Below the pieces are notes generated by a model. That model was not told where the DNA came from and did no database searches. It saw only the letters and a program-made list of their open reading frames with translations. Below are positions 18,301 through 56,981 of a DNA stretch of 56,981 nucleotides, piece after piece. Location: NCBI GenBank assembly GCA_001600815.1, contig BCKZ01000002.1:825454-882434 (forward strand), in the 5' to 3' direction. Positions within the stretch are counted from its first letter, which is position 1. Each line of letters begins with the position of its first letter. The DNA is from Alloascoidea hylecoeti (taxonomy: Eukaryota). A program made the translations under genes and the position numbers.

Positions 18301-19180
18301 TTGGGGTGTTATTATTTGATTGCCGAACAATATCAGCCCTTTCACTAACAATATCAAAAGTTCTTGGATTATCTAAACTGAATGGTTCTTCAAAGAAAAC
18401 AGAAGGGACATTATCCAAAGAAGGTATTGAAGTTTGTAAAGAAGATAAAGATTTCCAAAGAAGATTGCTTGTAGTTCCTTCACTTATAACCGAGGCTGAA
18501 TCTTTTACACTTGAAGTGTCACTAGAATCATCTCTACTTGAAACAAAAGCACCAGCAGCTTTTTTCATGGCTTGATATTTACTGTATTCATCTGATATAG
18601 AAGATAGATAACCCATAACTTCTGTTTTTTTGACTCTTCGTATTTTAGGTAGTTCTACTGGTGTAATTTCCTTTGTGGTTGGGTTTCGATGATGAACAGA
18701 GGAAGAAGTAGGTACAGGAGGATTACTTGATACTGAACCTCTTTTTTGTCTAGGACTACTAGAGCTTGCTAGAGAAGAGGAAGTCATAGGAGACATTTGT
18801 GGAGATCTAAAAGGGTCATTTTGATTATCTCCGTTCAAGATTTGAAATATGGGATTAGGACCAAGAGGAGAAAACGGTGTAGTTTGCAATGTATTAAGAC
18901 CAAAGGAATAATTACTTCCTTCATCAAGGCTTGGCCGTAAAGAATAAGAATAAGAAGATTTTGAATTGAGGCTTGAAGCTCTTTTGTGACCGAATTTTGG
19001 GATGGTTGTAGAATCCGCTATTATGGAGCTGGCATATTCGGCAGTGGTGGAAGTTCCAACAGTTGAGGAAGAACCGACCTCGGAAGGCAATTTATAGAAA
19101 CCGCCTGGTCCATTTTTGTCCCCGTCTCTGTCCGTGGCCTGATCCAAGGAGATACGCAGTTTTTTGTTGGTGTAGGCCAT
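15320..19180 (-). CDS. VPS54: GARP complex subunit Vps54 (~1248 aa, 3 exons)
   Basis: Motifs FSLDNPRTFDIVSE, LQEKLSWYLDTVEIHLVNEIS, LVLGAQATQYAGLKHITARHLA. Exons 19180-16088, 16028-15937 and 15881-15320 are joined in frame by GTATGT...CTAAC...AG introns of 59 and 55 nt. Confidence 0.93.
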
Positions 19181-20189
19181 TTGTGCCGACAGGAGAGGAG
19201 GTTAAGTTCAAGTTGAATTGGTGTATGAAATGTGGTGGTGAACTAAACACCCATCAAACTTATTACACAAACATCAATATCGGAATATAACTTATATCTT
19301 TGACTTTAAAGGTTGTTATTGATTTTTAAATGTTATATTACTATAAAGCAAAATATCATATTTATATTATATAGTGGTAAAGAACTACACTTTCATATAT
19401 TAAAAACTACATGATATTCATGGTCATACTAGTATTCTATCTTTGATTTGATATCTAGACAATTCAATTCAAATAACAACTGATTAAGTAATATTCACAA
19501 GAAACGATATATAGAATATAATATTATTTATTATCATCATGGAACAAGTTATGCCTAAAAATGAAAATATACAAAAGTAAAAAAAAAATTGAAAACAAAG
19601 AATAAAAAAAACCAAAAAAATAATAATAATAATAATAAGCATTCTATTCATTTTTAAAAGAAAATCCAATTATGAATTATATTATCAAAGACTTCTCTTT
19701 TCTTAGAAAGATGTCATAACATGAAATTTTTCCATTGATGGGGGTAGGGACAAGGAATAACTGCAAAAAGGGGACAAAAAGGGGACAAAAAGACAAAAAA
19801 AAACAAGGCATTATCTTAATTATAAGCAAAAATATTATGTACCCCAGTAAATCATTAATTAGAAGAATTTTCTTTTTAATAAATTTTAAGATCTTCTGTT
19901 GTAATTGAAAGTGAGTTTTAGCTTGGAGCTGTGAACAAATATAAAAAAAATGTAATTAAGTCATAAAAAATTTAGTAAATGATTGAGATGATTATGCGTA
20001 TAAAGGCTAAAACTTTTAGTATTTTTCTTTTTTAATCATCAACAAACTATTTTGAGAAAGAGTTAAAAAAAATTCTATAGATTATAAAAAAAATGATATA
20101 AATATAAAATGTGAATTGTGGAAATAAAAAAATGAATGAATAAGTACAAAAAAAAAAGGAAAATAAACATAACATAATCTTTCTCTTGT

Positions 20190-20316: not shown

Positions 20317-22263
20317 TTATTTTTTCCCTTTCCCTTTCTTTTTATCATTATTATTAGTTGAATCATTTGGTATCAAACTATCAATTAAAGGACAATCAAC
20401 AATTTCTAAATCATTAGAAATTCCATTATTAATATTATTTGATATTATTGAATGATTTTTCTTATTATTACTATCATTAAAATTTGAGTAACTATAATTA
20501 TAATTATAAGTACCATTTGGATAAGTTGAATTTTTAGGAGATGAATAAACTGAATTATAATCATAACGATAATCATAACCTCTACTTGTATTTGTATTAT
20601 GACTTAATGCATTTGAAAAATAATCATCATAATTTTCAGAATCATCATTTACATTTTCATTTTCAGAATCATCATTTTCTTCATCATCATCATTTTCAGA
20701 ATCTAATAAATATCTTAGTGTAGTTGCTGGAAGTGGAGCAACAGTTGGAGCTTGTAGATTTTTTGAATTTGATATTAATGGTGCTTCTTGTAATAAAGTA
20801 TCATTATGTTGTAATGTTTGTAATGACTGCAACGGAGCAACTGTTCCATATTTATGTGATGATGAAGTTGAAGGATTCGTAACGTTTAAAAAAAACCCAC
20901 CAGCTTCAGAATCAGAATCAGAATCAGAGTCAGAATTGGAATCCGAGTTTGAATCCGAGTTTGAATCAGAATCTAAAGTTAAAATAGATTTTTTCTTTTT
21001 AATTGCTAAAATTGATGAATTATCAACAATATTGTTAGTTTCATAAATTTGGTTTAAATTTGCTTCATGATGAATTTTAAAATCTTCATCATCAGGGTAA
21101 TGCTCATATTCTAAAGAAATACATTGTTCTACACGATCATTAAAGTGTATATGTCTTGTATTTGTATTTGTATTTGTATTTGAATTTGTATTTGTATTTG
21201 TATTTATTGAATTGATTGAATTTACTGTAGTTTTATCAGGTAAACCTAATATCTCAGCACTTTTTAATAAATACGCAGTAGTATTAGGATATTGATTCAG
21301 CTGTTGTTGTGATTGTCGTTGTTTACACAGTTGAATAGAACTGGAACCTTGTGATAACAAATTTTGAGCACTACCGATTCTACGACGGTACACGTGGTGT
21401 CGTTCATAACTTGATTGGCGTGGAGGAGAGACGTCACCTTTTAAAACGCTGGAGACATTGGATAGTAGACGTTCAGTAGCTGTATGTTTTTTCAGGATTG
21501 GTTTTGTTGGATATGCGATTTGACGATGGAAATATGAAGTATTTGGAGAAGTTGAATTTAAAGAGGTTTGTGAGGGAGCCTTTGAAGCGATTCTAGACCC
21601 AGCTTGAGAATGGACATCCAACAATTCAATAATGGTAGGTTCGTCCAATAAAGGGCCGTATAACCAGGTGACGTCTGAATCTTTCAACCAATTGACGGAT
21701 TCTGGGGAAACAGTAGAAAGATTGAATTTCTGTTTTATCCACAAACGCCATGAAATGTTTTCGAGTCTGGCAGCATCGGTGACTGTTTTTCTGTTGTTAA
21801 CTACGTAACGCCAGGATAGTTGGATTTGTCGTTCGCTCCAGTTGTGACTCAGATAGTCCACCCGTTCATCAGGCTGTTTTGCAGTGAGAAGAGTGTCGTC
21901 CAGAGGTGCAACATCCATATTACTTGTAACTTCCAAAGTATTTGTAACGGAAACAGAATCCTCGCTGGTATCGGAGTCGGAATCTGAATCTGAATCTGAA
22001 TCGGAGGTTTGGACGACCTCAGCATTCGCATTCTTTTGGGGTTTCCATTTTGCAGCGAGTTCCGCCAGCTGGTCTTGGGTGTAGTCGCGGGAGGAGTTTT
22101 CGGTTTGGCCTACAATGAAATCGTCGAGGAGCCCCAGCGAACGGGTACGTTTCAGAGCGAAGGAGTTTCTGTGGAAGGACTCGATATCGTCAGCCTCGGT
22201 GGCCTGGGAGGTTGATGGCCACGAGACGTCCGCAGCAGCAGGCAAAGATGACTTCGGAGGCAT
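20317..22263 (-). CDS. REG1: Reg1-type PP1 (Glc7) regulatory subunit, glucose repression (~648 aa)
   Basis: VDYLSHNW, RLENISWRLW, VSPESVNWLKDSDVTWLYGP and the PP1-docking RHIHFNDRVEQCI motif. The ORF-track start at 22290 is TTG; the first ATG is at 22263. Contains coding microsatellites (SD)n and (NT)n. Confidence 0.9.
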   Translation of the reverse strand: MPPKSSLPAAADVSWPSTSQATEADDIESFHRNSFALKRTRSLGLLDDFIVGQTENSSRDYTQDQLAELAAKWKPQKNANAEVVQTSDSDSDSDSDSDTSEDSVSVTNTLEVTSNMDVAPLDDTLLTAKQPDERVDYLSHNWSERQIQLSWRYVVNNRKTVTDAARLENISWRLWIKQKFNLSTVSPESVNWLKDSDVTWLYGPLLDEPTIIELLDVHSQAGSRIASKAPSQTSLNSTSPNTSYFHRQIAYPTKPILKKHTATERLLSNVSSVLKGDVSPPRQSSYERHHVYRRRIGSAQNLLSQGSSSIQLCKQRQSQQQLNQYPNTTAYLLKSAEILGLPDKTTVNSINSINTNTNTNSNTNTNTNTRHIHFNDRVEQCISLEYEHYPDDEDFKIHHEANLNQIYETNNIVDNSSILAIKKKKSILTLDSDSNSDSNSDSNSDSDSDSDSEAGGFFLNVTNPSTSSSHKYGTVAPLQSLQTLQHNDTLLQEAPLISNSKNLQAPTVAPLPATTLRYLLDSENDDDEENDDSENENVNDDSENYDDYFSNALSHNTNTSRGYDYRYDYNSVYSSPKNSTYPNGTYNYNYSYSNFNDSNNKKNHSIISNNINNGISNDLEIVDCPLIDSLIPNDSTNNNDKKKGKGKK

Positions 22264-22336
22264 GACAGAATGTTGGAAGGAAAGAGACAAACAATCTGGT
22301 TAAAACTATACAAACACCCACACATTGGCGCACGTT

Positions 22337-22987
22337 TCAGTCCCACGCAACTGCCTCCAAGGCCTCCAATGCACGTCCCACCCCCAGTCGCTCCCCAAAC
22401 TGGTTCCATCCCACGTCCCCGTAGCGCACCACTTCCACCGCAGACTCGAACCCTTCCACGTCCACGTCTTCCCCACCGCCGTCAGGAACCATCACGGCAA
22501 GACACACCCCGTCCCACTGAACCAACTTATCGCCACTCCCGCCCTCCCCCTCCACCTCGTCTTTGTTAAACTGCTGCAGCAGCTCCTCCAGCAACTGTAA
22601 ATAAACCTCCACTTTATCCCTGCCACTCTCATTGAAGGTGAAAATTATCCCTCCTATAACCTCTCTTGCTTCTTTGGCTTCCTCGCTACTAAACGTTTCA
22701 ACCCACTTTTTAAAACTATCAACTAGTGACTCTTCTGTATCTCCTTTCTCTCCAAACTCATCTATCCACAGTACAAGATCTGTTCTGTAATACTTGGTGC
22801 TTAATTCTACTTGATGGATTATTCCAGCGTGACATTCTGGGATACTACTTGGTAATGATCCAAACAGATCTGTATATTTAATGATTAGTGACTAATGATT
22901 AGTAACTGTTTGTAATTAAAACTCACCGTTAATAATCCGTAGCTTTCCTGAATGAGAAGCTCCTACAATCAAGACTCGATTCTTCAT
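22337..22987 (-). CDS. IRC6: Irc6 / alpha-gamma-adaptin-binding p34 homolog (197 aa, 2 exons)
   Basis: Exon 1 22987-22927 (MKNRVLIVGASHSGKLRIIN), 57-nt GTGAGT...ACTAAT...CAG intron at 22926-22870, exon 2 22869-22337 with HAGIIH, STKYY...LWIDE, AKEAREVIGGIIF and NQFGERLGVGRALEALEAVAW. Confidence 0.88.
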
Positions 22988-23217
22988 AATAATGTTAAAG
23001 ATATTCTCAAATTACAAGATTTATGGTGAAAACCAAATTAAACAACCAAACACTTTTACAGATTACAGACTACAATTGAGAAAAAGTATTCATCATACAA
23101 TATCATGTTATTCCGATGTATTACATGAACCCAAAAAACATAAAACTATAATACATAACTCAATAAAACAAAGGGTAATATAGCACTGATAAACCATTAA
23201 ATATTTTATCAATTTAA

Positions 23218-30929: not shown

Positions 30930-31976
30930 TTAATGTCGCCATATTCCTTCAAAATCTTTATTTAACTGCATTGACAGAAGTGTATCAGAAGGGAAAGCAA
31001 CAACAAATAAAATAGATGAAAGGCTTATTAAAGAACTATCAAATGATATTAAATATACTTCTTTTGATATTATAAACCCATTACTACCTTGTGCATATTC
31101 AATTGCTCTAAATATATTTCTAACCATTACAACTAATGATGTTATGATAAGTAATAAATTCAATGTTCTCCAATTGTTTGTTTTTGAAGGAAGATTTTTC
31201 ATTGCTTTTGATTTTGTGGTTGGATTAATTCTTGAAAGATAAACATATCTTAATTCAACAATTAAAAATAATCCAAAACAAATTATCTGTATTATTAAAC
31301 CTGACATGATTATCCATCTTGATGCTTTTATCATGTTTTTATGACCGGATACAGCGGCACCTGTTCCTTGTAGTAGAAAGCTTATAACATCTCCTGTAAC
31401 GAAACATGTAGTAAGGTACTTGGTCTTAATTAAGGAATAACTTTCGCTATCCAATAAATTAACTAATCTACCAAAAATCATATAGATTGTTGCTGTTATG
31501 AAAGCAGGAGATACTAAAATCAATATATTTTGTAAGATATAAAAACTTTGAGTTGTGATATTACTGTGAGATTTTATTCTACCGATGTATCCCAATGCTT
31601 CACATATATTTCCGATAATTAAGGGATAAAAACATAAAACTTGATATCTTAATTTTGTTCTTATTGTCATTAAAGATTTATAACTATTTCTTGCACCTTC
31701 ACTATCTTCAGGATTTGTTGAATTTCTTAATAATTGAGTTTTTTTACGATTTTGATGTATTCTTTCAAACATTGAAGATTCAGGGTCATCATATTGAGTA
31801 AAAACCAAATTTTTTGCAATTTTCCAAAATTTCATATAACTTTTGAAGATCCAAAGGAATTGGACAATTGCAAGAAATAAGAAAATGGTTGTAAACGTTA
31901 TTGATACACCAAGTTTTGGTGTGTAGTGATAAGCGGTCCAATTTTGTTTGTTTGGTATAGGGTTTGAGCTATTCAT
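30930..31976 (-). CDS. RTA1: RTA1/Rsb1-family 7-TM lipid-translocating exporter
   Basis: YHYTP, GNICEALGYIGR, ILVSPAFITATIYMIFGRLV, FVTGDVISFLLQGTG, RNIFRAIEY and EVYLISFD motifs. Confidence 0.88.
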   Translation of the reverse strand: MNSSNPIPNKQNWTAYHYTPKLGVSITFTTIFLFLAIVQFLWIFKSYMKFWKIAKNLVFTQYDDPESSMFERIHQNRKKTQLLRNSTNPEDSEGARNSYKSLMTIRTKLRYQVLCFYPLIIGNICEALGYIGRIKSHSNITTQSFYILQNILILVSPAFITATIYMIFGRLVNLLDSESYSLIKTKYLTTCFVTGDVISFLLQGTGAAVSGHKNMIKASRWIIMSGLIIQIICFGLFLIVELRYVYLSRINPTTKSKAMKNLPSKTNNWRTLNLLLIITSLVVMVRNIFRAIEYAQGSNGFIISKEVYLISFDSSLISLSSILFVVAFPSDTLLSMQLNKDFEGIWRH

Positions 31977-32932
31977 AGTACTTACTAGCCATAGTACTTG
32001 TAAAAAGGTGAATATCGTGACTATATGACTTTTGAAAGCTTTAGGTGGTCAATATATAGTTGGGTAGAGCACAAACGGCATTGTGATTAGAGATAATATC
32101 GTGTATTCCAATGGGCGAAGGATGATTATGATTTTTTTGATATTGCCATTGGTTAGTAATTATATAATTATATATTCCCATGTGAAGTATAATATAATAG
32201 TAGACATATGAATCTTACTGAAATGACGGCCATTGATGATGGATCATAGAACAAATACATGTGTTTATATTAATTATTACGTGTATAACAGTTTTCAACA
32301 GTTCTGAGCTAACAGTTTGAGCCGGAATCAACCAGCGGGGCCATGTAACGTTGGTAACAATTTTAATATATCAGCTACAACTACAGTTTTGGTTATTTTT
32401 GCAGGCACAAATTATGAATTCGTTTGGTGGCGAAAGACAGAATGACAACCTGTTTCGAGACTCAAATTATGAACGGCCTCTATTTATAGTTTCATTTATA
32501 GTTAACTTGTGGGTTTAAATAACTAGCTGTTACTAGCTATCTATTATAGTGTGAAACTTCACAATATTTTTATGGTTGATTCAGGAACAAAATCCACCAG
32601 CGCATGCACTCGGGCGTATTTTCTTTTATTTTGCTTTTTTGTTCATTTTAATTTGTTTGATCTTTTTGTTTATTTGATTATTTTTTTCAACCCGCTTAAA
32701 ATTTATAATTATTTTACTCAGAATTCTGTTTAATTTATTTCATTTCATTTGTTATAATTAACTCTTTTAATTTATCTTGTCTGATAATATGCAAGGCGCA
32801 GAAGCAAGCTACATATTAAATGTAAAAGTTAAAGGTTAATTATATAATTAAACCATCGACCAACCATTAGTACTGTATATTTATCTAACGGGATCCCCCA
32901 AAACTCTTCAAACCGTATATTTCTACTTCACG

Positions 32933-39366: not shown

Positions 39367-42300
39367 ATGAGGAAACCGGCTAAAGGTATTTTTGATGCTT
39401 TTCTCAGGTCAAATTTAAAGTCAGGAAAGGCCGATACAAATATTACTGTAAGCACAATTGTACCAACACTTTATGGTCGGCGTTACTAACTAACATGTCT
39501 ATCTAAAAGGCTAGCTCTACTTTCTCTTTGAAAGATAAACCAACAAAAGACAGGTATAAATCACTAAAGGTAAATATAAATCATCTCACTTTTTCGATAC
39601 GAAACATTAACCTAATAAATACTTATTCATTCAGTCCAAAATATCGAAACACCTAGGAGATAATCTCCATATTTCTGATGATATCCTTTTAGCTGCTTTA
39701 CATTCAGATTACGCAAACGGTGATTCCGAACTTACTTATGAGTTCACGCGTTTCATTCAGCTAGCTATGAATGGCTTTGTAGTTAGTACCAACCCAACAG
39801 ATAAACGTGGTAATAAAATAAAACTTTCAGGTGCTGATAATTGGAATTCAGTCTCATGTTATATCGACTCGGTCTTATTTGCAATGTTTGCAACTCTAAA
39901 CTCATTTGAACCGATTATGGCTAATGTTCAGGAATCTTCGATAACTGAAGGAACTTCTGAGGATGATCTTGAAATTATAACCAATAGGAATATGCTCATC
40001 AATATACTGCGACTATATGTGAGTCTACTACGATCTGGGAAAAAAATAACAACTGACATTACTGAAGCTCTTTGCAACGTCCTGGCCAAAGCTGGATACC
40101 CTGACGCTATATCAAATCAACAACAAGATGCCGCTGATTTATTTAATTTTTTAACGGAAATTCTTCAAATGCCACTATTGACGCTTAAACTTAACATTGA
40201 ACATGGTGGTAAAGAGGAAGAAATGGTTGATCATAAAACTGTGAAAGAACGACTATTGTACGTTCCGATACCTGAGGATAAGGATGAAGAAGGTCCTATT
40301 TTACTTGAAGACTGTTTAGAAACTTATTTTTCTGATAAAATTCAGGTTAAAAGACACCTTAGAAGAGGAACTATTGATTCAAATATGACAATTCCTACTT
40401 GGATAAAGCACTTGAAGGGTTTAGATCCTGAAAACCAATTTACAGATTATGAAAAACCTTCAGTCAATACAGAAGAGAACTGTGATGACTTAACAGCAAA
40501 TACAGAAACAAATAACGCCCAAGATGAAGCTGATGTAAGGACACTACTTTCTAATTCTGATATAAATAGACGACATTCAAATACAGAGAAACAGATTTTC
40601 TCGGATGACTCTTCTGTTTCAGAAATATATTTAGGGATAGCTCAAAACCTCGAGCAACCACAATCAAAACCTCGATCTGACTCAATTGAAGGAACATATT
40701 CTAGTGCTAATATGCACGAACTTAACAAACAACTAACATTCATTGCACCAGAAAAAGAGTTCGACACTGGATCTGGATCCGGATCTGGATTTAATTCTCA
40801 AATTGTCGATAGTAAGGAGGATACCAATGAGACCTATATGAAAAAAATTGAACCTCAATCTCAACCTGACCCAGCTGTAACCCAAGAAGTGTATTTTGGT
40901 AACCATGAAGTTAGCAAGCATTTAAAATTTTCTGTACTAGAAAAGGATTCCGACACTGAAACAAAGTCTGGGACTTTAGATAGTAAGGAAGATACTCTTA
41001 CATCAAAATCAAAAAGTCGTCTCTCCAAAGAAGTAACTCTACAAGCCTGGTCCTTTATGCAACTTTTACCATTTTACACTGACATTGATAATGAAGTATC
41101 TTCAGCTAAACATTTTGCTTCCAAAAATCCAATTATCGTGATTTGTTTGAAACGTTATGTCTGGTCAGGTGAAGAATTTAAACGCAATGCGAGGAAAGTT
41201 TTAATTCCAAGTGAGATAAACTTTTCCAATTTTATTGCTGAAGATGGAATTCATTCCGAAAACAGTTACGAATCTTTGATGGTAACGGATTTTAAACTTG
41301 TGCTTGAAAGTGCAATCTGTCATCGTGGCCAGAGCATGAAAAGTGGCCATTTTATCTCTCTAGTTGCAGATAGAAGCAAAGGAACAGAGATATGCTGGTT
41401 AAAATATGATGACTTAACTAAGCGTGGTGATAAAGTCGAAGGAGTTGATTATGATAAATTTATGAATGAAGAAATGCCATACCTATTATTTTACAGGTTA
41501 GTTGGTGACACACAATTAAACGGCGCCAACTTAAGCTCAAATGATCCTAGTGATTCTAAATTTTTGTTCGATGATGAGAATGAAATTCCTGCTTTTTATC
41601 AGGCTGATACTACGGATCCCCCCAATCCAAAAGTGAATGAAGAGATAACAGTGGATAATAACTCTAGCCCATTAACTCATTGTATGGAACCAAAACACTC
41701 TAAAGAAATAGACCCTTTGGGTATATCAGTTCAGACAGTATCGGATCCAACTTCCGATCCAACCAAAAAATCAAAAGAATTCAAAATTTCTAGATTTTTT
41801 GGAAAAGATAGAAGAAAGTCATCAGATAAACTAGCTATAGAGGAAGAAATAGATCCTGTTGAAAATTTTTGGTGGAATTCATGGAATGAAGATGGAGAAT
41901 TTGCAACTGGAAATGAAGGTTTACAATTGATCAAAAATAAATGTTCAAAACGTGCTGAGCATGGACAGAATTTATTCATGGATGAGAAAAGAAAGTCTAA
42001 CGAAGGAAATATTTCTTCTGATTTGGGGATGTCTCCAAATAGTGATGATACATTGGTGAATGAAGTTGAAAAGACTTCATTGGTCACTAATTTTTTTAAT
42101 TCCTTTAATATAAAGGGGAAACCTAGTATAGCTAAAGATTTGTCAATTACAACCAAAACAGACAACAAATCTAACGACAATTGGAGTATCTCCTCAAACG
42201 ATTCTATTCGAATTGCTAAACCGACGAAAACAGCAACCAGAAAGAAGAGCACTACATTTTTATCAAAACTTGGTATAACGAAATCCAAACCACAATTACA

Positions 42301-42667
42301 GGAGTCTGTACACAAAGTTGAACCATACGAACTTACGCTTCCTGTTTATAACCAACAGCCTGAGTTTATTGTTGAACAGAATAATCTGGGAAGCTCAATT
42401 CCCACTTGCAGCCTGAACAATAGCGCACACTCATACGAATCAGCTTCGAACTCATCGCAAAATTCACCGAGTTGTAATACCAATGGCAGTTCACATAACA
42501 TTAACTGTACAGATAGTCCACCAACTACTATAACTAGCAATCTAGAAGGATCGTCAGGTACGTATCCAAATAAACATGAGACATCAGACCCTTACAGTGA
42601 ACTATTGCAAGGAGAAAATACAAAAAAAGGAGAAAAGTATAGACAGGATAAGTGTATTATTGTTTAA
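39367..42667 (+). CDS. USP-family (peptidase C19, CYLD-like) deubiquitinase with C-terminal CaaX (~1057 aa, 3 exons)
   Basis: Cys box NSVSCYIDSVLFAMF, QQQDAADLF, His box LESAICHRGQSMKSGHFISLV and WLKYDD; ends CIIV*. Exons 39367-39447, 39510-39569 and 39635-42667 join in frame via GTAAGC and GTAAAT...AG introns. Confidence 0.85.
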
Positions 42668-44383: not shown

Positions 44384-46840
44384 TTAAGAGATTGGTTTAC
44401 TCCTTTCATCAATGCTAACATCTGTCTTCAATTCCTCGTCAATATTGTCATTATTTTCTTCTTCAATCGAGAATTGTAAGAAAAATTGTTTATCGACAAC
44501 CCAAGTCATCCATTCGTCGATCCAACATCGAACAATCCACCATGCTCCGAATCCACTGCCTCCACTAAGGCTTATCTCTCTTAAAATGCTTGTTATTAGA
44601 TTATTTATGTGTAGCAAGACAACTTTAACATGAATTTTGGGGAATTTTAAAGGTATTGATGTCAAGAATTTCCCCCAATGAAGAACAACATCTTCTTGGA
44701 ATGAGAAATCTGGGGCTCGTTCCTCAGTTTTTATCCGGGAGTTATTTAATGAATTTGAATCAACTTCAGTTAATGCAGAACTAGTATTTTTTTTCTTCGG
44801 TGATGGTGTACTTGGAAGTAAATTTTTATTTCCAGCTGAAGGTAGTGTTTCGCTACCTTCATTTTCTTTGCCTATAGATAAATTCGAATCTATGCCAATT
44901 GTAATTTCATCCTTTTCAGGTGTTTTAATTCCACTTTTTAATATATTAATGACATCTTCTTGTAAAAGATGTAAAACCAACTGTCTTTTTTGACCTCCAT
45001 ATTTAAAACAAGAAAGTTCTCTTGATAATAATAAATTAAAATCAACAAGTTTTGTCCAATCATTAATCATTGATGCAACATCGGTTTCATTACTTAGAAT
45101 TTTACCAGCTGCTTGTGCTGTCTCATTAACTCTTATTAGACCGGTTACAAGATTTACAAAATCTTCAGCTAATTGTAATTTCTTTGTTTTAATTTTTTTA
45201 ATGATAGCTGGGGTTATTAAAGGATTCTGTTTTTGCAATTGATTAAATGTTGTTGTAAATATTTTTTCCAAATTGTCCATTTGACATCCAGCCATACTTT
45301 GTAAGGCACTAATTACATTTCCTGGTACGATCTGTAAAGCTAATGGTGATAACATTTGAAGCATTTCTTTATACATTTGTAAATCTGCTGTTAGAATCCA
45401 ATCATCAATCCTATTTTCTTTTTCTTTTTCTTTTTTATTGCTATCATCATTATCTTTCAATAGAATAAGGAGTAATTCTTTTAAAACCTCAATAAATGGC
45501 GAGTCAATCTGATAGAAAGATTCAATATTCTGGAAAAACTTTTTAATATGTAAAAACCTCATTGATTCTATTAATTCTTTACAATGTTGTGAATAGATTT
45601 CATAGATAGTTTTTAAAGATTCTTTACTTGCCGATTCTAACAGGTTTTGTGAGAGGAAATCTTCAATTGGGGTTAATGATATTGGATGAATAATATATGG
45701 TTTTATAGTAACTTCTGTAAAGTCTTCCGATAGTTCAACTTTTGGTGTCATATCTATTATATGCGAATAAAATGGTTGTATATCTTCGTCATCTTCAACA
45801 TGATCATGAGGAGATTGTGGATTTTTCCCTTCCGAAGATGATTGCTCAAATATCGAATCAAAATTTTGGCTTGTATAATCATAAGGTAAATCAACTAAAG
45901 GTGTAGCATTCCGTGATTTCGATTGCTCTTCTGTTTGATTAAAATATGGAATATTATTGTCTATTAATTTAATACCACAATAATGATACTTTGATTGTCC
46001 CCTTGTACCTAATCTACGTGTAGTAATAGTTGGAAATAAACCCTTCACAAGTTTCCCAAAAGCAGCCTGACCAAGTGGTTTTAAAAGATTATTTGCACAA
46101 ACAGAAGCATACTTTGCAAATATCCGATTTCGTGGAACTGCTGCATCAGGATCATATACACAAGTTTGTAAAATGACTATTACTCCTATTAATTGTTTTG
46201 TACGTTCTTCTTGATTTCGGAGTTCCTCTTTATCTGATAATAGCTCTTCAAGTGGTGTGTTGACTAAAGATAATGCCATCTTTTTAAGATTATCCATTAT
46301 AGACTCTGATTTTGAACCACTACCATCCATTTTAAATCGTTTACCCCGATGAGGAGGAAGCGGAGAAGAAACACTTGTGTTATTTTTCACTATATTATTA
46401 GAATTGTTGTTTGAGTAATTTGGGACAGGTCCACTACCTCCAACATTTACATAATTTGGAGAGTTTGTAGTACTGATAGGCGAGCCTAAATACGAAGACT
46501 GGTTTTGGAAAGAAGCTTTCTCTTGGACCTGTTGGATCTGACGGGCAACATTTTGTCTATTGTCCATAGGGATTTGTAGTATATTTTGAGAAGAAGGGCC
46601 GGACTGGATTCTAGCCAGATTTTCATGAGCATACTCCAAACGTGCGCGGGGATTTTTCGTCCTACTGGTTGAGTGTGGAGTGATTACCTGGTTAATCCCA
46701 TAATTATAAGAAGTCAGAGTTGCGTTTTGATTTGTAGAACTTGATGGTGAATAAGTATTCCTGTCGTTATAAATTTCATTTCTCGTACCTTGCCTTAGAG
46801 CTGGATCTATGACGACTCCATTCTGCATGACTTGGTCCAT
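44384..46840 (-). CDS. RFX1: RFX-family winged-helix transcription factor
   Basis: RFX DNA-binding domain AVPRNRIFAKYASVC...GQAAFGKLVKGLFPTITTRRLGTRGQSKYHYCGIKL and the C-terminal REISLSGGSGFGAWWIVRCWIDEW motif. Confidence 0.93.
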   Translation of the reverse strand: MDQVMQNGVVIDPALRQGTRNEIYNDRNTYSPSSSTNQNATLTSYNYGINQVITPHSTSRTKNPRARLEYAHENLARIQSGPSSQNILQIPMDNRQNVARQIQQVQEKASFQNQSSYLGSPISTTNSPNYVNVGGSGPVPNYSNNNSNNIVKNNTSVSSPLPPHRGKRFKMDGSGSKSESIMDNLKKMALSLVNTPLEELLSDKEELRNQEERTKQLIGVIVILQTCVYDPDAAVPRNRIFAKYASVCANNLLKPLGQAAFGKLVKGLFPTITTRRLGTRGQSKYHYCGIKLIDNNIPYFNQTEEQSKSRNATPLVDLPYDYTSQNFDSIFEQSSSEGKNPQSPHDHVEDDEDIQPFYSHIIDMTPKVELSEDFTEVTIKPYIIHPISLTPIEDFLSQNLLESASKESLKTIYEIYSQHCKELIESMRFLHIKKFFQNIESFYQIDSPFIEVLKELLLILLKDNDDSNKKEKEKENRIDDWILTADLQMYKEMLQMLSPLALQIVPGNVISALQSMAGCQMDNLEKIFTTTFNQLQKQNPLITPAIIKKIKTKKLQLAEDFVNLVTGLIRVNETAQAAGKILSNETDVASMINDWTKLVDFNLLLSRELSCFKYGGQKRQLVLHLLQEDVINILKSGIKTPEKDEITIGIDSNLSIGKENEGSETLPSAGNKNLLPSTPSPKKKNTSSALTEVDSNSLNNSRIKTEERAPDFSFQEDVVLHWGKFLTSIPLKFPKIHVKVVLLHINNLITSILREISLSGGSGFGAWWIVRCWIDEWMTWVVDKQFFLQFSIEEENNDNIDEELKTDVSIDERSKPIS

Positions 46841-47648
46841 TTGGTAGTTAAAGTGAATAGAATCAGTAATGAGACATGAAATGATTAGTACCGTAATCGA
46901 GTTCCCGTGATATATATAGTATCTTGGTTATTCCGGGATTTCTTGATTGTGGAAAATTAGGAGGTTCTAATTTATTACTGAAAAAAAAAAATTGGGATTC
47001 ACAGGGCGTAGTCCAAAAGAACGAATTTGAATTAGTTGTTGATCGCGTTATAAAAGTGAGGAATGAATAAAACGGCGGAGGTCTGATTGTGGTCTAGTGT
47101 TAATAACTCCGGTTAGTTGATAAATTTTAGGATGTCTAAAAAAAAGTTCAAGAAAGAGAGACAGATGCAGATTATTCAGGAGAAACAGACAGAGCAGAGC
47201 CAATACGATGATACCATCAAATCACCATCCAACCCGGTCGGGTGTGAGACCAGCCTAGAAACCTCCACAATCTCGAGCCGAGCATCACCAACTGTGCCAG
47301 ATTATGAATGAGTCAATTGGGCAGGGGAGATAATTCTACTTACGGAAATCTTTTAGAAAAGGTTTGTGTTTGGGTAAGCACCTGGAGGTGTGAAGTTTGG
47401 AAAACCAAAACAGAAAAAGGAAAAAAGTTGTTGTCACACAGCTAATCTGGAACATCATTTATCACTATCATTAATACATAATAAACATAAAATAAATATA
47501 TTAAAAATATTGAGTATAATTACAAATTAAACAACTATTTAAATACAATTATATCATTAAAAAAAAAAAAATTAACGTAAAATAACAAAAAAAAATAAAA
47601 ACGTTTACTAAAATAGAAAATATAATATAAATATGCCAGGATTAATAA

Positions 47649-50600
47649 TCATAACTTGCTTAGTTTGTAGTTTTGAACAGGTTTCAATATACCATCTGCT
47701 ACCATGTCCTTAACACTGCTTTTACTGACATGAGAGCTCAATTGCCGGCTTTTAACCATATCTGCCCCAATCCGACAAATCTCCATATTATGGAAAATAT
47801 CCCATCCCAAACCACTTCGGGGTTCGCTTATGAAAGCAAGTGCCTTTTTGAAGTGGGCCGTTGCTTCTTCAAATCGTCCTTCTAAAGCACGGTAATAACC
47901 AAGATGCGAGTAAACAACAGGATTGTCTTCATCAATTGAAAGAAACGTGTGCATAATGCTTTCCAATTGTGATTTCGGGACACGATTGATTTGCCTACCA
48001 GCAGCTGTAAGGATTCCCCAAAGAATATCATTAACTACATATATCAATTTAGGCTTGCTTTTAACAAACCCGACCAACTCTTGTGCTTTGCTGAAAGCTT
48101 TCAGAGCCTCAATATCTCTCATATTTGTGTATAAAACCTCTCCAAAGAGAATCTGATACATTGGGTCAATTTTAGCCGCTGGTGCTTTTAAACTTCTTTC
48201 AACAATTTCTATTCTGTTTGATGTTCTCCACCTGCTGACTTGAACAAATAACGTTAAATACAAAGACTCATTTGGCTCCTGTCTTATCAATCTCTCGAGA
48301 ATATCACATGCTTTATCATATTGTTCATTTTCATAATAGAAAATAGCCAAATATGCTTCAATCTTAATACCATCTTCTGTTCGGTCATAAATTTGGGCAA
48401 AAGCCTCTAACCGTTTTGCCCTTTTGTCCCATCTTTCTTTCAACGTACCTTTAAATATACTTTCCCTATATTTATTATCTTTGATATATTGAATAGCAAG
48501 AAATCGTTGATGACCATCTAATTCATTTATTTCATTGACCATCGTAACTGGATCTGGGAGTTCTTTGGGAAACAAATGTTTTTCTAATTTCCTGGTCTTT
48601 CTGTTTAATACCCCCCATTCTTTAAACGGAGATTCACCGAGTTTCTTATAGTATGATTCTAAAGTTTCCGTCAACATATTCTTAATGATACTGGATATTC
48701 GACTATGTTCACTTCTATAATTGAGAACCGCTGATTTCTCTAAATCTAAAAGGCCTTCATCTTGTTGTCCATTAAAGATATTTGCAGCACCTCTATAATC
48801 ATAAGCAATATATGAATATTTAGTATTCAATTGAATTGCACTTGTGAAATATTCAATAGCTTTTTGAAGATATTTTCCTTCACATCTCTCTAAAAGATCA
48901 ATTCCAAGCTTTAAATAATATCCTACCGTTCCAGCCTTAAGTTCTTCACCAACTAAAGATCTTGGTAGCCTAATAAAGGGCCAAAAATCCATACGGAATG
49001 CAATCTGGTACTTAGGCATTGGTTTTGTTTTAATTCCATGTTGTTTAGTTTCTTCTGTAAGTTTCACAAAGTAATCTTGAACTAATTTAACCCTTACAGA
49101 TTTTAATCGCGAAACAATGTCTCGATTTTTACTATCTAAGAAATATGCTGTACTAATATCATTGAATGCATCCCGATAATCATTTTTCCTAGCATACAAT
49201 GTAAAGCTTCTGATATAATTTTTGACCTTAGCAGGATCAATTTCAATAGACTTTATGGTGTCCTGTAATGCATCATCATACCGTCTCAAATAATTATAAC
49301 AAATGGATCTATTAGCGTAAAGAGATGCTGTTGGATAATAACGAAGACCATTTGTGTATTTTTGAATAGCTTGTGCATACCTTTTCTGTTTAACTAACAC
49401 CGTGCCTTCCATTTTATATCTGAATGACAAACTTTGTCTCTCATTATCATTTAATAAAGCAATCTCTTCATCTGTTCTAACATCCTCTAGGGAATGTTTT
49501 AGACGATCTCCATAAACCAAATAGGGAAGAATTGAAACTTCACTTGGCGCCTCATCTGGACTTTCTGAGTAATGATCAAATGGATTATCTAACGGGAACG
49601 CATTTATATCATCTGAAGCTACATCATCATAAATCACAAAATCTCTTGAATTGGATTGCAGAATGTTATTCTCTTGAACATATTTTGTTAAGAAACTAGA
49701 CGAAAATTGATAATCACAATCAGAATCATAAAAATCACTTTCAGTATCACTAGTTTCAGAATCAATGCTAATATTTTGATAAGTTCCTCTTAAATTACGT
49801 AAACTTTCAATGCTTTGCTTTGGCTTACCGATATTTTTTGGTTTAGAAAAGGAATTATGAAGTTGTAGTTGTGGTTGAACAAATGATGCTTTAGATGAAC
49901 TATCATCACTCGAATATATAAAAGTCTTATCTGTTTTATATCGTCTTTCTTTAATTGTTATTCCACCAAAAATTCCATCCCCATGACCATCTTCTGATGA
50001 AGCATCGTTAATGCCAATGTATAAAGAATCTGCAGAAGACATAGAACCTACAGATGATTTTCTAAAATGCGGTCGACCACTATGTAAAGAACTAGTTCTT
50101 CGGGGTCGTCCGAATTCCATACCAATAGGCGATTGACTTGGTGTTTCGGCATTGGATGATGATACTGATGATGATAATCCAGAAAGAGATACTAATGAGG
50201 GTGTTTTTATCCCAAAATTACCTCTTAATGGAGACGCTCTCAGTGGGGACTCCGGAATTTCCATAGACATTTTAGTTTCATAAACTTCTTCAATAATTAA
50301 ACCATTTTTTAAATGTTCCCCTGATGTTAGTGCTCCTCTATTTGAACTCTCCCCGACTGGTTTAATTGTCATCACATTTCTAAGAGGTGATGGACTTCTT
50401 CTCATCCTCCTGGGCGATTCTCCTGTTATTGGTATACTTGACGAGCTTTCAGTTTGGGTCAGCTTAGGACCCCCTAATATAGTCTTATGAGTAGCATTTT
50501 TACTAATAGGAATTCCCTTTAGTTTTTGCAGAGCTGGATGATCAACTATTTATTGAACATTAGTAACTCCCTTCTAATAAACATCAAAGAAAAAAAAACA

Positions 50601-53600
50601 TACTCTTTTCAGGTGTCGTTGACTCTGAATCAAGAACTGTTGTAGTGATAGTATGCGATTCCGATTCCATTATATTTAATCCAAGGTTCACTAATTAATT
50701 TATGTTAGTTAAAGATCATATATACATGAATAGAAAGTTAAAATTCGAAAAGCTCACATTTAGAAGAAGTTGGTTTTAAATTAATCCCCGAGTTGAGAAT
50801 AAGAGGCAACTTCGATGGTATTTTATTCGGCCCTTCTTTTTGGCGTATTGTATTTTCCAATTCAACTGATATAAGAGGTTAGAATAGAGAAGTTTCCAAA
50901 AATACTTTTAAAAAATATGAAACATACCATTTGAAGAAGAGGGATTATAAGTAGGAGTCTTATCATCATCAATATCAGATGATACTTTAGGAGGTTTTGG
51001 TGTAACATTAGAGATTGCTAAATTGATCGTTAGAACTAAATTTAACAAATTCATTTTAGTAATAATAGTTAACAAACCTGGTTGATATAAATCATCATCA
51101 CTATCCTCTGATGTATCTCGATTAAACTCTGTATGTGTAGAGGTCTTTAACTCATTTCCATGGATAGTGTAGAGCGATTGAGGCTGTTTGACAGGCTCAA
51201 ATATCACATTGTGATAAATCTCAGATTCCGAACTCAAACTATCTTCTAATTGATCATTTCCAAAAGAAATTTTGATCGGTTCTAATTCATTTTTCTTATT
51301 AGCAGTTGATTTCTGTGTAAGAGGACTTTCAAAGAAAAAGATGTTCTTTTCATCCGATTGAGATTCTTCCGCGCTACTATGAATATCCGGTTTAATAGGC
51401 GTTCTAATAAGATGTGTTTCGGATATGTTATGCGGCAACAGTGTGACTGGCGAGGTTGATTCATCTAAATCATTTGTTAGTAAGTTTATCCCCCTCCCAA
51501 AAAATGAAATGTAACACTTACCTTTGAAAGTTTCGTAGTCATCTGCATTATTTAAGGATACTTGTGATCTCCTTGACATTTCCGAGATGAAATCTTTTAT
51601 GCTATCAAAACTATCTGTAGTATTCACATCTGATTGATATCCTATATTTAATTTGATAAGTTTAGGTTGTTCTGACTCCGATTCTTCAATTAAAACGGGA
51701 GACGTTTGTAGTTGTTCGTCTTTTAAAGAATTAGAGAACGGAATATTTTCATCTTGTGGATTTTCTCTTAAATCTTGATCGTGATCAGCAAAACTTATAC
51801 TTTCGCTTGAACTATTTTCTTCCGAGCTTATCTTAGATGACTGAGTGGAGCTCTCAGGGATAGATTGATATATCCTGTGCCTAGTGTCTACTAGCCCTCC
51901 CAAAATAGACTCTGAGCTGCCTGAACTGAATTGGACAGCGGGACCTTCAACGGTAATATTTTGCTTAGGTACTGATTCTTCGCTTAACTGTGAGGCTGGT
52001 GAGATTATTGGAGCTTTTGGTGGATCTGAAGTCACTTTAGGAGCATTTAAACCTTCTCTCCTATCTTCATCAGTGACAGATTGATAATCGGAAACTAGTT
52101 ATAATTAATAACAATATTACGTTATAAAAGAAAAATAATTACATACCATTAGAGTCAGATAGCTTATCGGCAGAGCCCTGTTTATCTTTTCGTGAAATTA
52201 AATCTTCTAATATCGCAGATTCATCTTCGTATACATTCCTTTCAACAGAATCATAGATGATAGGCTGAATAACCATAGTATTTCCAACCGGGACTAAAAT
52301 ATATATTTTATTGTTAGTATAAATTGAAGCCTAAAGTCGGTAATATATCGCTTACCTGTTTCTTTCTGTGAAGGGCCTACAATTTGTATTTGATTCTCAT
52401 TACTTTGGTCAATTGTATCATTTAACGGTGAGTTATCAAAAACTTCGTTTTTCGTGGAATGCTGAATATGTGCAGAAGGTTTCGGAGACAGCTGTAAATC
52501 CTCTTTAACATCTAGTAATCTATTCAATTCATTCTCTTCTGTAGGTTCAATTCGCTCATTTACACGATTTATTTTGTCTCTTCTGGTTGTTTCTTCCGTG
52601 AAAACTATCGGTGGTTGTAATTTATTTATTTGTTTGGATTTCTTTGCTTCATTAGGCGATGGTAACGGATCCTTACTTGGCAAATTCATTTGACCTTCAG
52701 AGACAAAATAACTACCTTTATTCTCATTATTCCAATCCAAAGCTGGGACGGTTTTGATATCCTCTAGATCTTTTTCGGGAAAAGGCAGTAATTTTGGCTT
52801 TACGGTCGATCTCTGGCTTTCAGCTAATGTCGTTCTATTATCAGGAGTTTCATTGGGTTCGTTTTTCTTGATAAAACTATTAGAAGGAGGGTGCCCCTCA
52901 GTCATGAGAGGTAATTGTGATTGTATGTGTGGAATTATATCTTCTGGAGTAGAGCCTGTCCCTGGTATGGCTGGATTCAGTCTCTCATTCAGCTTATCAC
53001 TAGCAGCAGAATTTGACTTGTTTTCTTTAAAATCATCAGCTAGGTTAAAAAAAAAAAGTTAGTAATAAAGATAAATAATAGTAGGTTGTACACGTACTGT
53101 CATATTTTATTTTCTCATTAGGAATCTGATAACTTATATCACTTGGAATAATATCCTGGCTAGAGACAATTAATTCATGCTCCGATTTTGACGACGCAAT
53201 TTTATTCGTCTGAGAAGCATCTTCAATTTGCGGGGCAGTTTGTGAGGGAGTCAGTCTTCGATTATTTGAATTTGAAATAGGAGATGATCCCTTCCTGTCA
53301 GCTTTAAAATCATCGGTGCCAGATTGCGAATGTCGACCTGTTGGAATTCCTGGTATCGAATACAAAGGAGTGCTACTTGATCCGTCATCTTTTTGTTGCA
53401 CTGCTGCGTTTTGGCCTGAATTTTCAATCCTAGGAGATAAGTTTGTATCTACTTGGTTAAAGGCTTCAAAACTAAAGTAATCTGCGGCTGGATTCACATT
53501 TTCTGGGGCAAGGTCATGTCCAGAACTTGAAATATCATCCTCACATTCAAAGAATTCGTCCGAACTTTCCTCCGAAGATATAGAAGGTTCAGGTTGCGCA

Positions 53601-56600
53601 TATCCTACTAATTCAATACTACCAAGACCAGCGCCATTTTTAGCGGCTTCTATAACTGATGATTCTGTCGATTTAGATAATGGTACTATTGGACCATGAG
53701 CTGGTTCGTGTATGCTATTTTCACGAACATAATCTAGCAAAGTATCTTGCAATTGTGGAGACATTTTTTCTTGATTTATTAATAATTTGGAGCCGTTTGA
53801 GTCTTCTGTAAGAGGTACCGATTCGCTTATATTTTTATCGACATTCTGTGAAATTATAAGGGACGGCTGCCTAGGTAATTTTATTCTTGAAAGAGTGTCA
53901 TTTTCGGTATTATTGAAGGCGACAGAAACACCTTCTTTTGTGGCAGATACCTGAGGTATTCCATTTTTGCTAGACGATTCTGCATCTTGTGACAAATAAA
54001 GATTACTGTTTCTCAAATTATCATCATCATCAAAATTCGAAGAAGATTCGTGCAATCTGTTAATCTCAGTGATTAAACTGTCAGCAATTGACGTGTCGCT
54101 AACATTTAATTCGCTATCCACATTCAGTGAAACTGCTCCTGAACCAATTAAAAACGTGTCTAGTTCAGATGGAGGGAGGGATGATAACTCTTCATGTTTA
54201 TCTCTTTGATTTAAAGGTGTACCAGAACTTGTTGCAGGTTCATAATTGATAATTGCGTCTTTATAGTTTCCAATTTCTTCTTCTTTATCAATATCATCTT
54301 CGTTGGATACCGGAAACTTCTCTCTTTGCAGCCTCAATGATTCTGGTCTTTGGCTTTTATTAACATCTAAAAAATCATCATTTGAACTGGAGTAGGATTC
54401 ATTAAAACCTAGGGTAGAAGATGGTTTAGAATTGGGCAGCTTAGCTTTAATAGTTTCATCATTCTTCTCTTCATACTTGTCTGATGAAATATCAATATTT
54501 GGTGTTGATACCGATTGAGGATGAGATCCTATTGAGTCTGATAATTTGCTCTCGACTATTGAGCCCCCTTCACTTATAATATATCTATGTTGATCAATGT
54601 TGACATCTTCAGTGGCCGGTAAATGTATGGATGTGGCGATGGAAGAGTTTCTGGATGAATTCAATTTCAAATTAAGTGGCATTGAACTATCCGTATCTCC
54701 AACACCAGCTGATAAAATAGAAGTGGTGGTGTCTTCGGCATTCACTACTGGATTAATACCAGGAACATGGTCGCTTGCTGGTGATGAGGATATCATGCCG
54801 TCATTCGGATATCGAGTGTCATCGAAAGATGTATCCGATTCTAGTGTAACAGGAAGAGTCTTATTAAAAGAATGATCTTTGGAACTTTCACTAGAACTAG
54901 GCTGTATCAATTCATTCGTATATATATCATTATTATGATCACTAACCAACTCTTCACGACCAACCATTGATGTTACATCATCAATCGACTTTTCTAACGA
55001 AATCAGTGAAGAAATATCTTCTAAGCTTTCTTGCTTGCTAGATTCAGATTGAATACCCTGATCAATTGGAGTTTTTCCATCATCATGGTGTTTAACAACT
55101 GATTGATCCTTAGTAGAGCTTCCCTTAGAATTTTGTAGAGTAATTGTGTGCTCATTTAAACTATCTATTTTACTATCTCCATTTTCATCTTCATTTTTTG
55201 TATTATCATCATCATAGTCAAGACCAGAAACAGAACCTTTTGAGGAGATCGGAAGAGGAATATGTAAAGCAAGATCCTGCAAAGTATCAATTTTGTCATC
55301 AATAATAATTCCAGACTGAAAATTATTATATTCTTCATTAGTATAACTCTTAGAAGCATTGTCTATAGGTAATGTTTCATGACAGCCAATAGACGCATCC
55401 TGTGAATTTGGAAGAGAAATATTTAAATCAAGATCTTTCAAGCCACCAAGTTTATCATGTGTAGTACATATAGGCCGAAGATCGCAATGTTCTTTTTTAG
55501 AGAGTTCCTCGAGAGAACTTTCTCTGGGTGGTATTTGATCACCAGGAATATATTCAATCCATTCTGGAAGATTGGTATTTGAGCCAATGTCTTTCAAATC
55601 TGAACTTTCCATAATTGATGATTCAAAACCATTTGTATAACTTTTCTCTGACTCTGGGAAGGAAGTTGCTAAATCATCATTCAGGTTTTCAATTTCAATT
55701 CCAACGTCAGGTTGAATATCAATTGGGTTTTCTATAATTGGTGATTCAACACCGTCGGAAGAACTTTTGTGTAACTTTAGGGGGTGAGTTTTTAATACAA
55801 CATTATTCACATCTTCAATTTCAGTGTAAACCTCAGGTTGAATATTATGATGCTCTTCCTTACATTCTTTCTCAACTGGACTTTCTATAATTAGGGATTC
55901 ACGCCTATCGGTGGAACTTTCCTCTGAGTTTAGAAGGGGAGTGGTTAATGCAATATCATTTTGGTCCTCAAATTCAATACCAACCTCGGGTTGAATATCA
56001 AGTTTTTGTTCCTTATATTCTTTCTCAATTGGCGATTCAAGACCATCAATGGAACTTTCATCTGAGTTTGGAAGGGGAGCTATTAATGCAACATTACTCA
56101 CATCTTCAATTTCAGAACCATCATCAGGTTGGATACTATGACGTTCTTCATATTCTCTCTTAACTAGGCTTTCTGTACTTGGTGATTGAAGACCAGTAGA
56201 ACTCTCATCGGAATCTGGGAGTGGAGTTCTTAATTCATAATTATTCACGTCTTTGATTTCAGTATCAGCTTTAGGTTGAGTATTATGATATTCTTCTTTA
56301 TATTTTTTCCCAATTGGTGATTCAAGACCTTTAGTAGAACTTTCATCTGAATCTCTTTCAACTGGATCTGGAAGGAGAGTCTCTGATGGAATATCATTCA
56401 CGTTTTCCATTTCAGTATCAACTTCAGGTAGAATATTATGATCTATTTCTTTGTATACTCTTTCACCCGGACTTTCGATAATTGGTGCTTCAAGACCATC
56501 AGTAGAACTTTCATATGAATCTGGGAGTGGAGTTGTTAAATTATAATCATTTTGGTCACCAATTACAACACCAACTCCGGGTAGTATATCAAGATGTCCT

Positions 56601-56981
56601 TCCTTATATTCTTTCTCAATTGGCGTTTCAAGTTCATCAGTAGAACTTTCATTTGAGCTTGGAAGGGGAGCTATTAATGCAACACTACTCATATCTTCAA
56701 TTGCAACTTCAGGTTGAATATTAAGATGTTTTCCCTTATATTCTATCTCATTTGGTGATTCGAGACCATCAGTAGAACTCTCATCGGAATCTGGAAGTGG
56801 AGTTGTTAAATCATAATCATTTTGGTCTTCAACTCTAATACCAACTTTGGGTCGAATATTAAGATGTTCTCCCTTATATTCTCTCTCGTTTGGTGATTCA
56901 AGACCATCAGTAGAACTTTCATTTGAGTCTGGGAGTGGAGTAGTTAAAGCATAATCATTCAGGTTTTCTATTTCGGTATCA
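47649..56981 (-). CDS. Giant (>=2970 aa, 5' end outside the window) acidic-repeat protein with a C-terminal Tom70-like TPR domain; >=8 exons
   Basis: Exons >56980-53098, 53039-52356, 52293-52147, 52094-51078, 51017-50928, 50865-50758, 50690-50604 and 50545-47649 splice in frame through GT...AG introns of 58, 62, 52, 60, 62, 67 and 58 nt. TPR motifs span ~49450-47750. Confidence 0.8.
55620..56981 (-). repeat. Coding tandem repeat, >=10 units of ~44-51 aa (consensus ~ DY.LTTPLPDSDESSTDGLESPIEKEYKEEH.NIQPEV..EIED.N)
   Basis: Units are visible in protein and DNA (recurring ggtgattcaagaccatcagtagaactttc on +). The frame stays open to the window edge. Confidence 0.9.

Follow-up and report, generated by a model that had tools for sequence, protein, structure and literature searches.

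To our knowledge, the mitochondrial receptor Tom70 is regarded as a conserved protein of about 600 residues that is always anchored at its N-terminus. The window analysed here, a stretch of 56,981 nucleotides (nt) from Alloascoidea hylecoeti (assembly GCA_001600815.1, contig BCKZ01000002.1, forward-strand positions 825,454 to 882,434), raises the question of what a Tom70-like tetratricopeptide repeat (TPR) domain may be doing at the end of a very long, acidic coding sequence that enters the window at its right-hand edge. The reading that we favour, with moderate confidence, is a single intron-rich gene for at least 2951 residues, in which a TPR domain descended from Tom70 would be the binding head on a long flexible chain that acts as adaptor or tether, and not a standard import receptor. 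That all of the parts belong to one gene is, judged from the sequence, quite probable.

In the arrangement proposed, at least 2335 residues would form a polyanionic, repeat-bearing disordered chain rich in Ser, Glu and Asp, which would be followed by an all-helical TPR domain of 616 residues descended from Tom70. This module would no longer be a standard import receptor that docks Hsp70 and Hsp90, a loss that is suggested because the carboxylate clamp is partly lost. It may instead form one end of a very long flexible adaptor or tether and bind peptides or partners there, while the disordered chain would supply reach and a multivalent set of acidic sites that can probably be phosphorylated. 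Contact-site proteins such as Lam6 are known to dock on Tom70 and Tom71 (PMC4518459; PMC7583919), which makes a role in binding, without one in import, plausible. The family would be a rapidly evolving branch from Tom70 that is limited to a small set of yeast-like fungi.

All parts of the gene are on the minus strand, where the listing of open reading frames (ORFs) gives four long stop-to-stop ORFs: 53045-56980 (1311 residues, open at the window edge), 52294-53058 (254 residues), 50908-52098 (396 residues) and 47649-50549 (966 residues). Introns were sought as GT..AG pairs with branch points, and the region 50350-53200 was read directly. In the direction of transcription, the visible part of exon 1 (53098-56980, 1294 codons, acidic and rich in Ser, Glu and Asp) is followed by intron 1 (53040-53097, 58 nt, GTACGT...TACTAAC...TAG), exon 2 (52356-53039, 684 nt), intron 2 (52294-52355, 62 nt, GTAAGC...TACTAAC...TAG), exon 3 (52147-52293, 147 nt), intron 3 (52095-52146, 52 nt, GTATGT...TAG, 15% G+C, without a canonical CTAAY branch point) and exon 4 (51522-52094, 573 nt). 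Intron 4 (51465-51521, 57 nt, GTAAGT...TACTAAC...TAG) leads to exon 5 (51078-51464, 387 nt), intron 5 (51018-51077, 60 nt, 20% G+C, with a weak GTTTGT donor and a TTCTAAC branch) to exon 6 (50928-51017, 90 nt) and intron 6 (50866-50927, 62 nt, GTATGT...TTCTAAC...CAG) to exon 7 (50758-50865, 108 nt). Intron 7 (50691-50757, 67 nt, GTGAGC...AACTAAC...TAG) precedes exon 8 (50604-50690, 87 nt), which holds an in-frame ATG and with it a possible start of a shorter product, and intron 8 (50546-50603, 58 nt, GTATGT...TACTAAT...TAG) precedes the last exon (47649-50545), whose stop codon occupies 47649-47651.

Six of these introns are obligatory, and two, introns 4 and 5, are optional, as they are in frame and contain no stop codon; intron 4, with textbook signals, is probably spliced. 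Exons 3, 7 and 8 are short, and so is exon 6 if intron 5 is real. When introns 4 and 5 are read through, they yield stretches rich in Ile, Leu, Asn and Phe, unlike the acidic flanks, and a retained intron 5 adds a moderately hydrophobic 19-mer with a Kyte-Doolittle value of 1.56. The open frame comprises 2951 codons plus the stop with eight introns removed, 2970 or 2971 with seven and 2990 with six, and since it is not closed at the window edge, the true N-terminus lies outside the window. An initial annotation of this DNA, made from the letters alone, had proposed a spliced gene of at least 2970 codons that is still open at the edge, a figure to which the seven-intron form corresponds; the peptide strings that it quoted are all present in the translation of 47649-50549.

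At the local composition the probability of a stop is 0.074 per codon, so that a run of 2951 codons without one has a probability of about 1e-99. The strict intron pattern has seven matches, representing six distinct introns, on the minus strand at 50546-53097, where about 0.4 would be expected from composition shuffles, which give about 0.15 matches per kb on each strand; the window as a whole shows no enrichment of the pattern (18 matches, shuffle mean 17). The G+C content is 15-32% in the introns and 33-37% in the exons. Because of the improbability of the open frame and the excess of intron patterns in 50546-53097, the frame is not a product of chance, and the gene structure predicted from the sequence is far beyond it.

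The DNA of the locus is no assembly artefact, because it is also carried by the contigs of an independent sequencing run and of a metagenome. The second run, which bears the same organism label, gave contigs over 47286-53556 and 53715-56038 with a single difference, a C>G change on the plus strand at position 51936 that corresponds to Val1625Leu (V1625L) in the spliced product. A contig of a wood-decay metagenome spans 48200-56038 with no difference at all. Past about 56000 the assemblies of short reads fall into small contigs, whose depth, when summed, is 4-20 times that of the flank in two runs. The short-read contigs in two runs break at about 48200 and at 56038-56981, and one contig links 56815 back to 55676. 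The fragmentation past 56000, the rise in depth and this link fit a longer, collapsed repeat array.

The region visible ahead of the last 616 residues comprises 2335 residues with a net charge of -217, which is spread over four successive segments as -97, -64, -50 and -6; by segment, Ser makes up 11-18% and Glu plus Asp 13-24% of the residues. Its mean hydropathy of 0.41 falls below the charge-hydropathy boundary of 0.447 and thus on the disordered side, and the chain contains 98 Ser/Thr-x-x-Asp/Glu sites. The first 450 or so visible residues (55631-56980) are formed by about nine copies of a degenerate tandem repeat of 46-50 residues, with the consensus PLPDSxESSTDG-LESPxEKEYKEE-xNIQPEVGxEIEDxN, and the DNA repeats with a period of 138 nt at 56482-56959. 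No Pfam family was found in the three upstream ORFs, and the non-repeat part of the first ORF (residues 450-1311) had no match among proteins of 721-2295 residues. In the 2335 visible residues, the N-terminus being outside the window, no membrane anchor was detected: in the eight-intron model the highest hydropathy over 19 residues is 0.95, and the same Kyte-Doolittle scan recovers the anchor of a control Tom70, P0107, at 1.6-2.1. The absence of an anchor before the TPRs, as first annotated, is thus borne out for the visible part of the protein.

Relatives of the domain are few. An exhaustive HMMER search against 1.84 billion representative sequences returned 12,114 matches at E up to 1e-3; among the best 150 of these, the alignment extends past residue 272 of the domain in only two proteins, P0002 and P0003, and the others are generic clamp matches. 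Within that set the family is rare. P0002, from the same species, has 747 residues and is 99% identical; it is an incomplete model from a broken contig of 8.9 kb, it diverges from the window near 48200, and no counterpart of its final 12 residues is encoded there. P0003 has 1352 residues and shares 54% identity with residues 7-616, right up to the C-terminus; in the spliced product the similarity sets in at residue 2134, within the last exon. Its N-terminus is not hydrophobic, with no 19-mer above 1.4, and this model is possibly incomplete. A scan of metagenome contigs with the family alignment gave 488 pattern matches, from which two loci were confirmed, both of them generic clamp TPRs with 28-29% identity.

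In the profile alignment the TPR domain (47826-49481, domain residues 7-558) follows the entire cytosolic part of fungal Tom70 in order, with an identity of about 22-26%. In profile comparisons with hhalign, where the query family consisted of two sequences (the window domain and P0003), a profile of 35 Tom70s was matched with a probability of 99.7, E 1e-25 and a score of 202 over 444 columns, query residues 7-558 falling on residues 155-609 of 657 in Tom70. The profiles of Hop (16 sequences) and SPAG1 (5 sequences) scored 110 and 80 over 116 and 108 columns, in both cases on the clamp only. When 259 other proteins were scored singly, ranks 1-28 were all taken by Tom70s, and the best other protein followed at rank 29 with a score of 93.8 over 105 columns; an alignment of at least 400 columns was reached by 12 of the 91 Tom70s and by none of the 168 others, whose maximum was 378. 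This comparison is conservative, because the 168 others had been picked as the best HMMER matches to the domain itself. The median Tom70 alignment extends to about query residue 261.

With BLASTP, the domain matches P0107 over query residues 6-276 with 25% identity (E 2e-22) and again in a colinear segment, query residues 452-553 on subject residues 510-604 (E 0.003); P0067 is matched with E 1e-21 and a second colinear segment at 3e-6. P0107 is a true Tom70, as it has the N-terminal anchor and matches yeast Tom70 (2gw1) over residues 168-639 at E 6e-55, and the annotation of its closest named relative states a similarity to S. cerevisiae TOM70. In the HMMER search P0107 and P0067 were aligned to about residue 260. 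The linker and TPR4-5 that are specific to Tom70 are present directly after the clamp: residues 140-280 alone score 29.6 bits on a Tom70 hidden Markov model (HMM), at the expected positions 270-352, compared with 11.6 bits for Hop, 0.1 for SPAG1 and a maximum of 2.7 among 300 shuffles. A language-model search with residues 140-616 placed TOM70 first at 0.94, TTC34 and other TPR clusters following at 0.92-0.94, and is taken as a lead only. Kinship with Tom70 is solid for about the first 270 residues; beyond them it rests on colinearity and not on strong scores.

The likeness to Tom70 and Tom71 (2gw1, 3fp2) consists of a three-repeat clamp unit, a specific linker and, by the profile alignment, further TPRs in the same order, and also of the position of the TPR domain C-terminal to a long unstructured part. 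There are differences as well: in Tom70 a membrane segment is joined to the domain by a short linker, no anchor is seen in the 2335 visible residues here, and the domain in the window has lost an invariant clamp Asn, carries two insertions and ends in a conserved tail. Relative to Tom70, the insertions, of about 55 and 30 residues, are placed near residues 290-345 and 411-442. Pfam reports TPR_1, TPR_2, TPR_19 and TPR_14 in the last 616 residues and no other domain; TPR_1 and TPR_2 match the three-repeat clamp unit, which also resembles the clamp domains of SPAG1, Hop, SGT and Tom70.

The three clamp-type TPRs (49110-49427) carry K29, T33, N63, K93 and R97 at the clamp positions, so that four of the five invariant or near-invariant Tom70 residues are kept. 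In 77 full-length fungal Tom70s these positions are K, N, N, K and R in 77, 77, 77, 77 and 76 cases, and in P0003 they are R, C, N, N and R. The window domain accordingly has no complete carboxylate clamp for the EEVD tails of Hsp70 and Hsp90. The second Arg of an RR pair, present in 76 of 77 Tom70s, is Ser or Ala in the window domain and P0003. The suggestion that the protein is a scaffold for docking chaperones loses ground here, as the clamp Asn found in every one of the 77 Tom70s is Thr in the window and Cys in P0003, which also lacks a clamp Lys. In a tree from a quick search, the pair stands outside 32 Tom70s on a branch of 3.56 changes per site, the median end branch of a Tom70 being 0.35.

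On the two sides of the domain the family shares further sequence. The segment before the TPRs (49500-50105) is alignable with P0003 and disordered, being modelled as coil with a predicted local distance difference test (pLDDT) value of 20-30. It contains the motif S-x-[DE]-S-[LI]-Y-I-G...G-I-F-x-G-I once (49953-50036), and P0003 has it twice, at residues of about 470-500 and 535-565; the motif matches no known family, and a language-model search with the pre-TPR part gave no usable match. After the domain comes a tail of 58 residues (47652-47825), which is shared with P0003 and ends ...LKPVQNYKLSKL. Its last three residues, SKL (47652-47660), match the consensus of the type 1 peroxisomal targeting signal (PTS1), a C-terminal [SAC][KRH][LM]. 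P0003 ends in NKL, and the preceding LKPVxNYK is conserved. An end of the PTS1 type is found in none of 77 fungal Tom70s and in one of the 259 compared proteins.

Several points weigh against the favoured reading, beginning with the role itself, as the putative function as adaptor or tether is argued from the architecture. Every splice junction is predicted from the sequence, and two metatranscriptome runs, from the same study as the wood-decay metagenome, contained no contig on this DNA. The giant size and the acidity may be neither conserved nor functional: in P0003, the only relative with the full domain, the N-terminal 516 residues are unrelated, Ser/Pro-rich and slightly basic, with a net charge of +18 versus -206 for the first 2133 residues of the window protein. 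The tree is uninformative on the origin or the timing of the split from Tom70. Two AlphaFold2 predictions, from alignments of three sequences, have a mean pLDDT of only 44.6 and 35.1; they make the domain all-helical with 29 helices and the preceding 335 residues coil, and the fold of Tom70 is described as 26 helices forming 11 TPRs in two domains packed head to head (PMC7583919). With Foldseek, human and yeast Tom70 chains take ranks 1-3 (E 8.5e-7), but with template modelling (TM) scores of 0.22-0.33 and root-mean-square deviations of 25-30 A, values that give no confirmation at the level of the fold; Tom70 or Tom71 chains fill 9 of the top 14 rows. A second structural comparison, with the first model, tied generic TPR proteins at Z 13-15 (subunits of APC/C, designed TPRs, CHIP, LGN) and had no Tom70 among its best 50 rows, a result that for the same low-confidence model decides nothing.

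Other points of this kind concern the descent from Tom70, and they feed the alternative that the protein joins a generic clamp TPR of the SPAG1, Hop or RPAP3 kind to unrelated TPRs, the colinearity with Tom70 being a coincidence of repeats aligned on repeats. A sequence search of solved structures does rank SPAG1 (1.6e-23), Hop (1e-12), RPAP3, SGT2, PP5 and Cns1 above human TOM70 (2.5e-8) and Tom71 (2e-4), and a profile search of solved structures gives the same ranking; residues 140-616 alone find nothing below E 0.01. In the reverse test, the window domain scores 98.3 bits (best domain) on the Tom70 HMM, which 7 of the 168 non-Tom70 TPR proteins equal or exceed, and 25 of the 168 reach the 87.5 bits of P0003, but only one of the 168 spans the same stretch of the HMM. 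Long TPR proteins, moreover, can align over 330-378 columns. Residues 281-440 barely match the Tom70 HMM (3.3 bits), and residues 441-616 fall out of register on it in HMMER (11.9 bits). The Tom70-like order that the initial annotation saw in the last 600 or so residues is therefore upheld by the 444-column profile match and the colinear BLAST segments and is not upheld by HMMER for this final part. As to the refuting condition that it named, a better match to another TPR family, other families lead in the solved-structure search, on the clamp only, and Tom70s lead in the comparison of single proteins. All the solved-structure matches are confined to residues of about 4-140, the clamp, and the likeness to the clamp co-chaperones (SPAG1, Hop/Sti1, RPAP3, SGT2, PP5, CHIP) is restricted to the first three TPRs and ends after about 110-130 residues. 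Their other domains were not found by Pfam, and the features that Hop, SPAG1 or RPAP3 have outside one clamp unit, such as repeated clamp units and DP or RPAP3_C domains, were not seen. A generic origin is considered very improbable, as the 28 leading ranks of Tom70s, the lack of any other protein at 400 columns, the score of the non-repeat linker with TPR4-5 and the second BLAST segments near the C-terminus, with two different Tom70s, all stand against it.

The remaining alternatives accept Tom70 and differ on the gene and its job. Two or more genes might be present, an upstream acidic repeat protein and a separate Tom70-like protein of about 920-990 residues, for which either the ATG in exon 8 or Met48 in the last exon would be the start. 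The model of P0002 indeed begins at this Met48, and P0003 has only 735 residues before the TPR domain, without similarity to the upstream ORFs, both of which also tell against a single giant gene. P0002, however, is the poor and truncated model described above, and the three canonical introns within the 380 nt that separate the third ORF from the fourth, as well as the one frame that is kept across all joins, speak for continuity. If intron 7 stayed unspliced, the upstream frame would close at about 50738, and the 70 nt or so from there to the ATG of exon 8 would be too short for a terminator and a promoter; separate genes are considered unlikely. It is also improbable that the protein is a working, membrane-anchored Tom70, possibly the only one of the organism, whose linker has grown from about 60 to more than 2300 residues and whose anchor lies upstream of the window. 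The order of parts would be that of Tom70 (anchor, linker, C-terminal TPR domain), the frame is open at the edge, and the four clamp residues that are kept include the equivalent of Arg171, a chaperone-binding residue of yeast Tom70 (PMC7583919). Against a working receptor stand the loss of the clamp Asn, with still more lost in P0003, the long branch, the two insertions in the core domain and the non-hydrophobic N-terminus of the P0003 model.

If the reading as an adaptor or tether is preferred, a more specific and decidedly doubtful version of it can be imagined, in which the Tom70 domain has left the mitochondrial membrane and now does the binding at one end of a giant polyanionic tether between organelles. 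An FFAT-like motif (two phenylalanines in an acidic tract) would hook VAP/Scs2 of the endoplasmic reticulum (ER), and the TPR groove or the SKL tail would engage a mitochondrial or peroxisomal partner. The core consensus of FFAT is EFFDAxE-like and lies within an acidic tract. The candidate in the window is a single EFFECED at 53537-53557 on the minus strand (spliced residues 1142-1148), after the acidic tract SSEESSD. Proteins with FFAT motifs bind VAP/Scs2 at ER contact sites (PMC7738843), and the likeness to such ligands is limited to this one core behind its tract. The motif was noticed post hoc, at least one such match occurs in 31 of 5000 composition shuffles of the 2335-residue region, and P0003 has none, so that the apparent motif and the SKL end are treated as leads only. 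A comparison may also be drawn with Leashin and Num1, in which a low-complexity chain of great length likewise carries a folded module for binding at one of its ends; this would be an analogy of architecture only.

An inter-organelle tether, if true, would open a class of contact-site proteins with long reach, new in that an import receptor supplied the building block. More generally, the favoured reading would mean that evolution can put the receptor fold to a different use, and the family would provide a natural experiment on which features of Tom70 serve which function. In the literature considered, Tom71, which arose in the whole-genome duplication of yeast, is the only Tom70 paralogue discussed (PMC7583919). 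Full-text literature searches on Tom70 relatives returned, in the titles and abstracts of the papers listed, no description of an anchorless or giant fungal relative, and a Tom70 domain that ends a giant disordered chain would appear to be an architecture undescribed in the literature searched. Its practical value is limited at present.

The gene is surrounded by ordinary fungal nuclear sequence. The long ORFs of the window match fungal nuclear families, namely alternative oxidase (4178-5245), NIF phosphatase, Vps54 (16079-19201), an AreA-type GATA factor, RTA1 (30930-32048), a Der1-like protein, a ubiquitin hydrolase of the UCH type (39611-42667) and an RFX factor. From these families, and from the short introns with branch points of the TACTAAC type, a fungal origin of the DNA is deduced. 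The RFX factor is the downstream neighbour, an RFX-type DNA-binding protein at 44384-46927 on the minus strand (RFX_DNA_binding 2e-28, BCD_RFX 1e-18). A tRNA scan and an Rfam scan of the window gave no hit each. The window is AT-rich, with about 29-38% G+C per kb over most of its length, and shows a G+C peak of 0.485 at 22001-23000, just past the AreA-like GATA ORF, where the surrounding sequence is at about 0.3.

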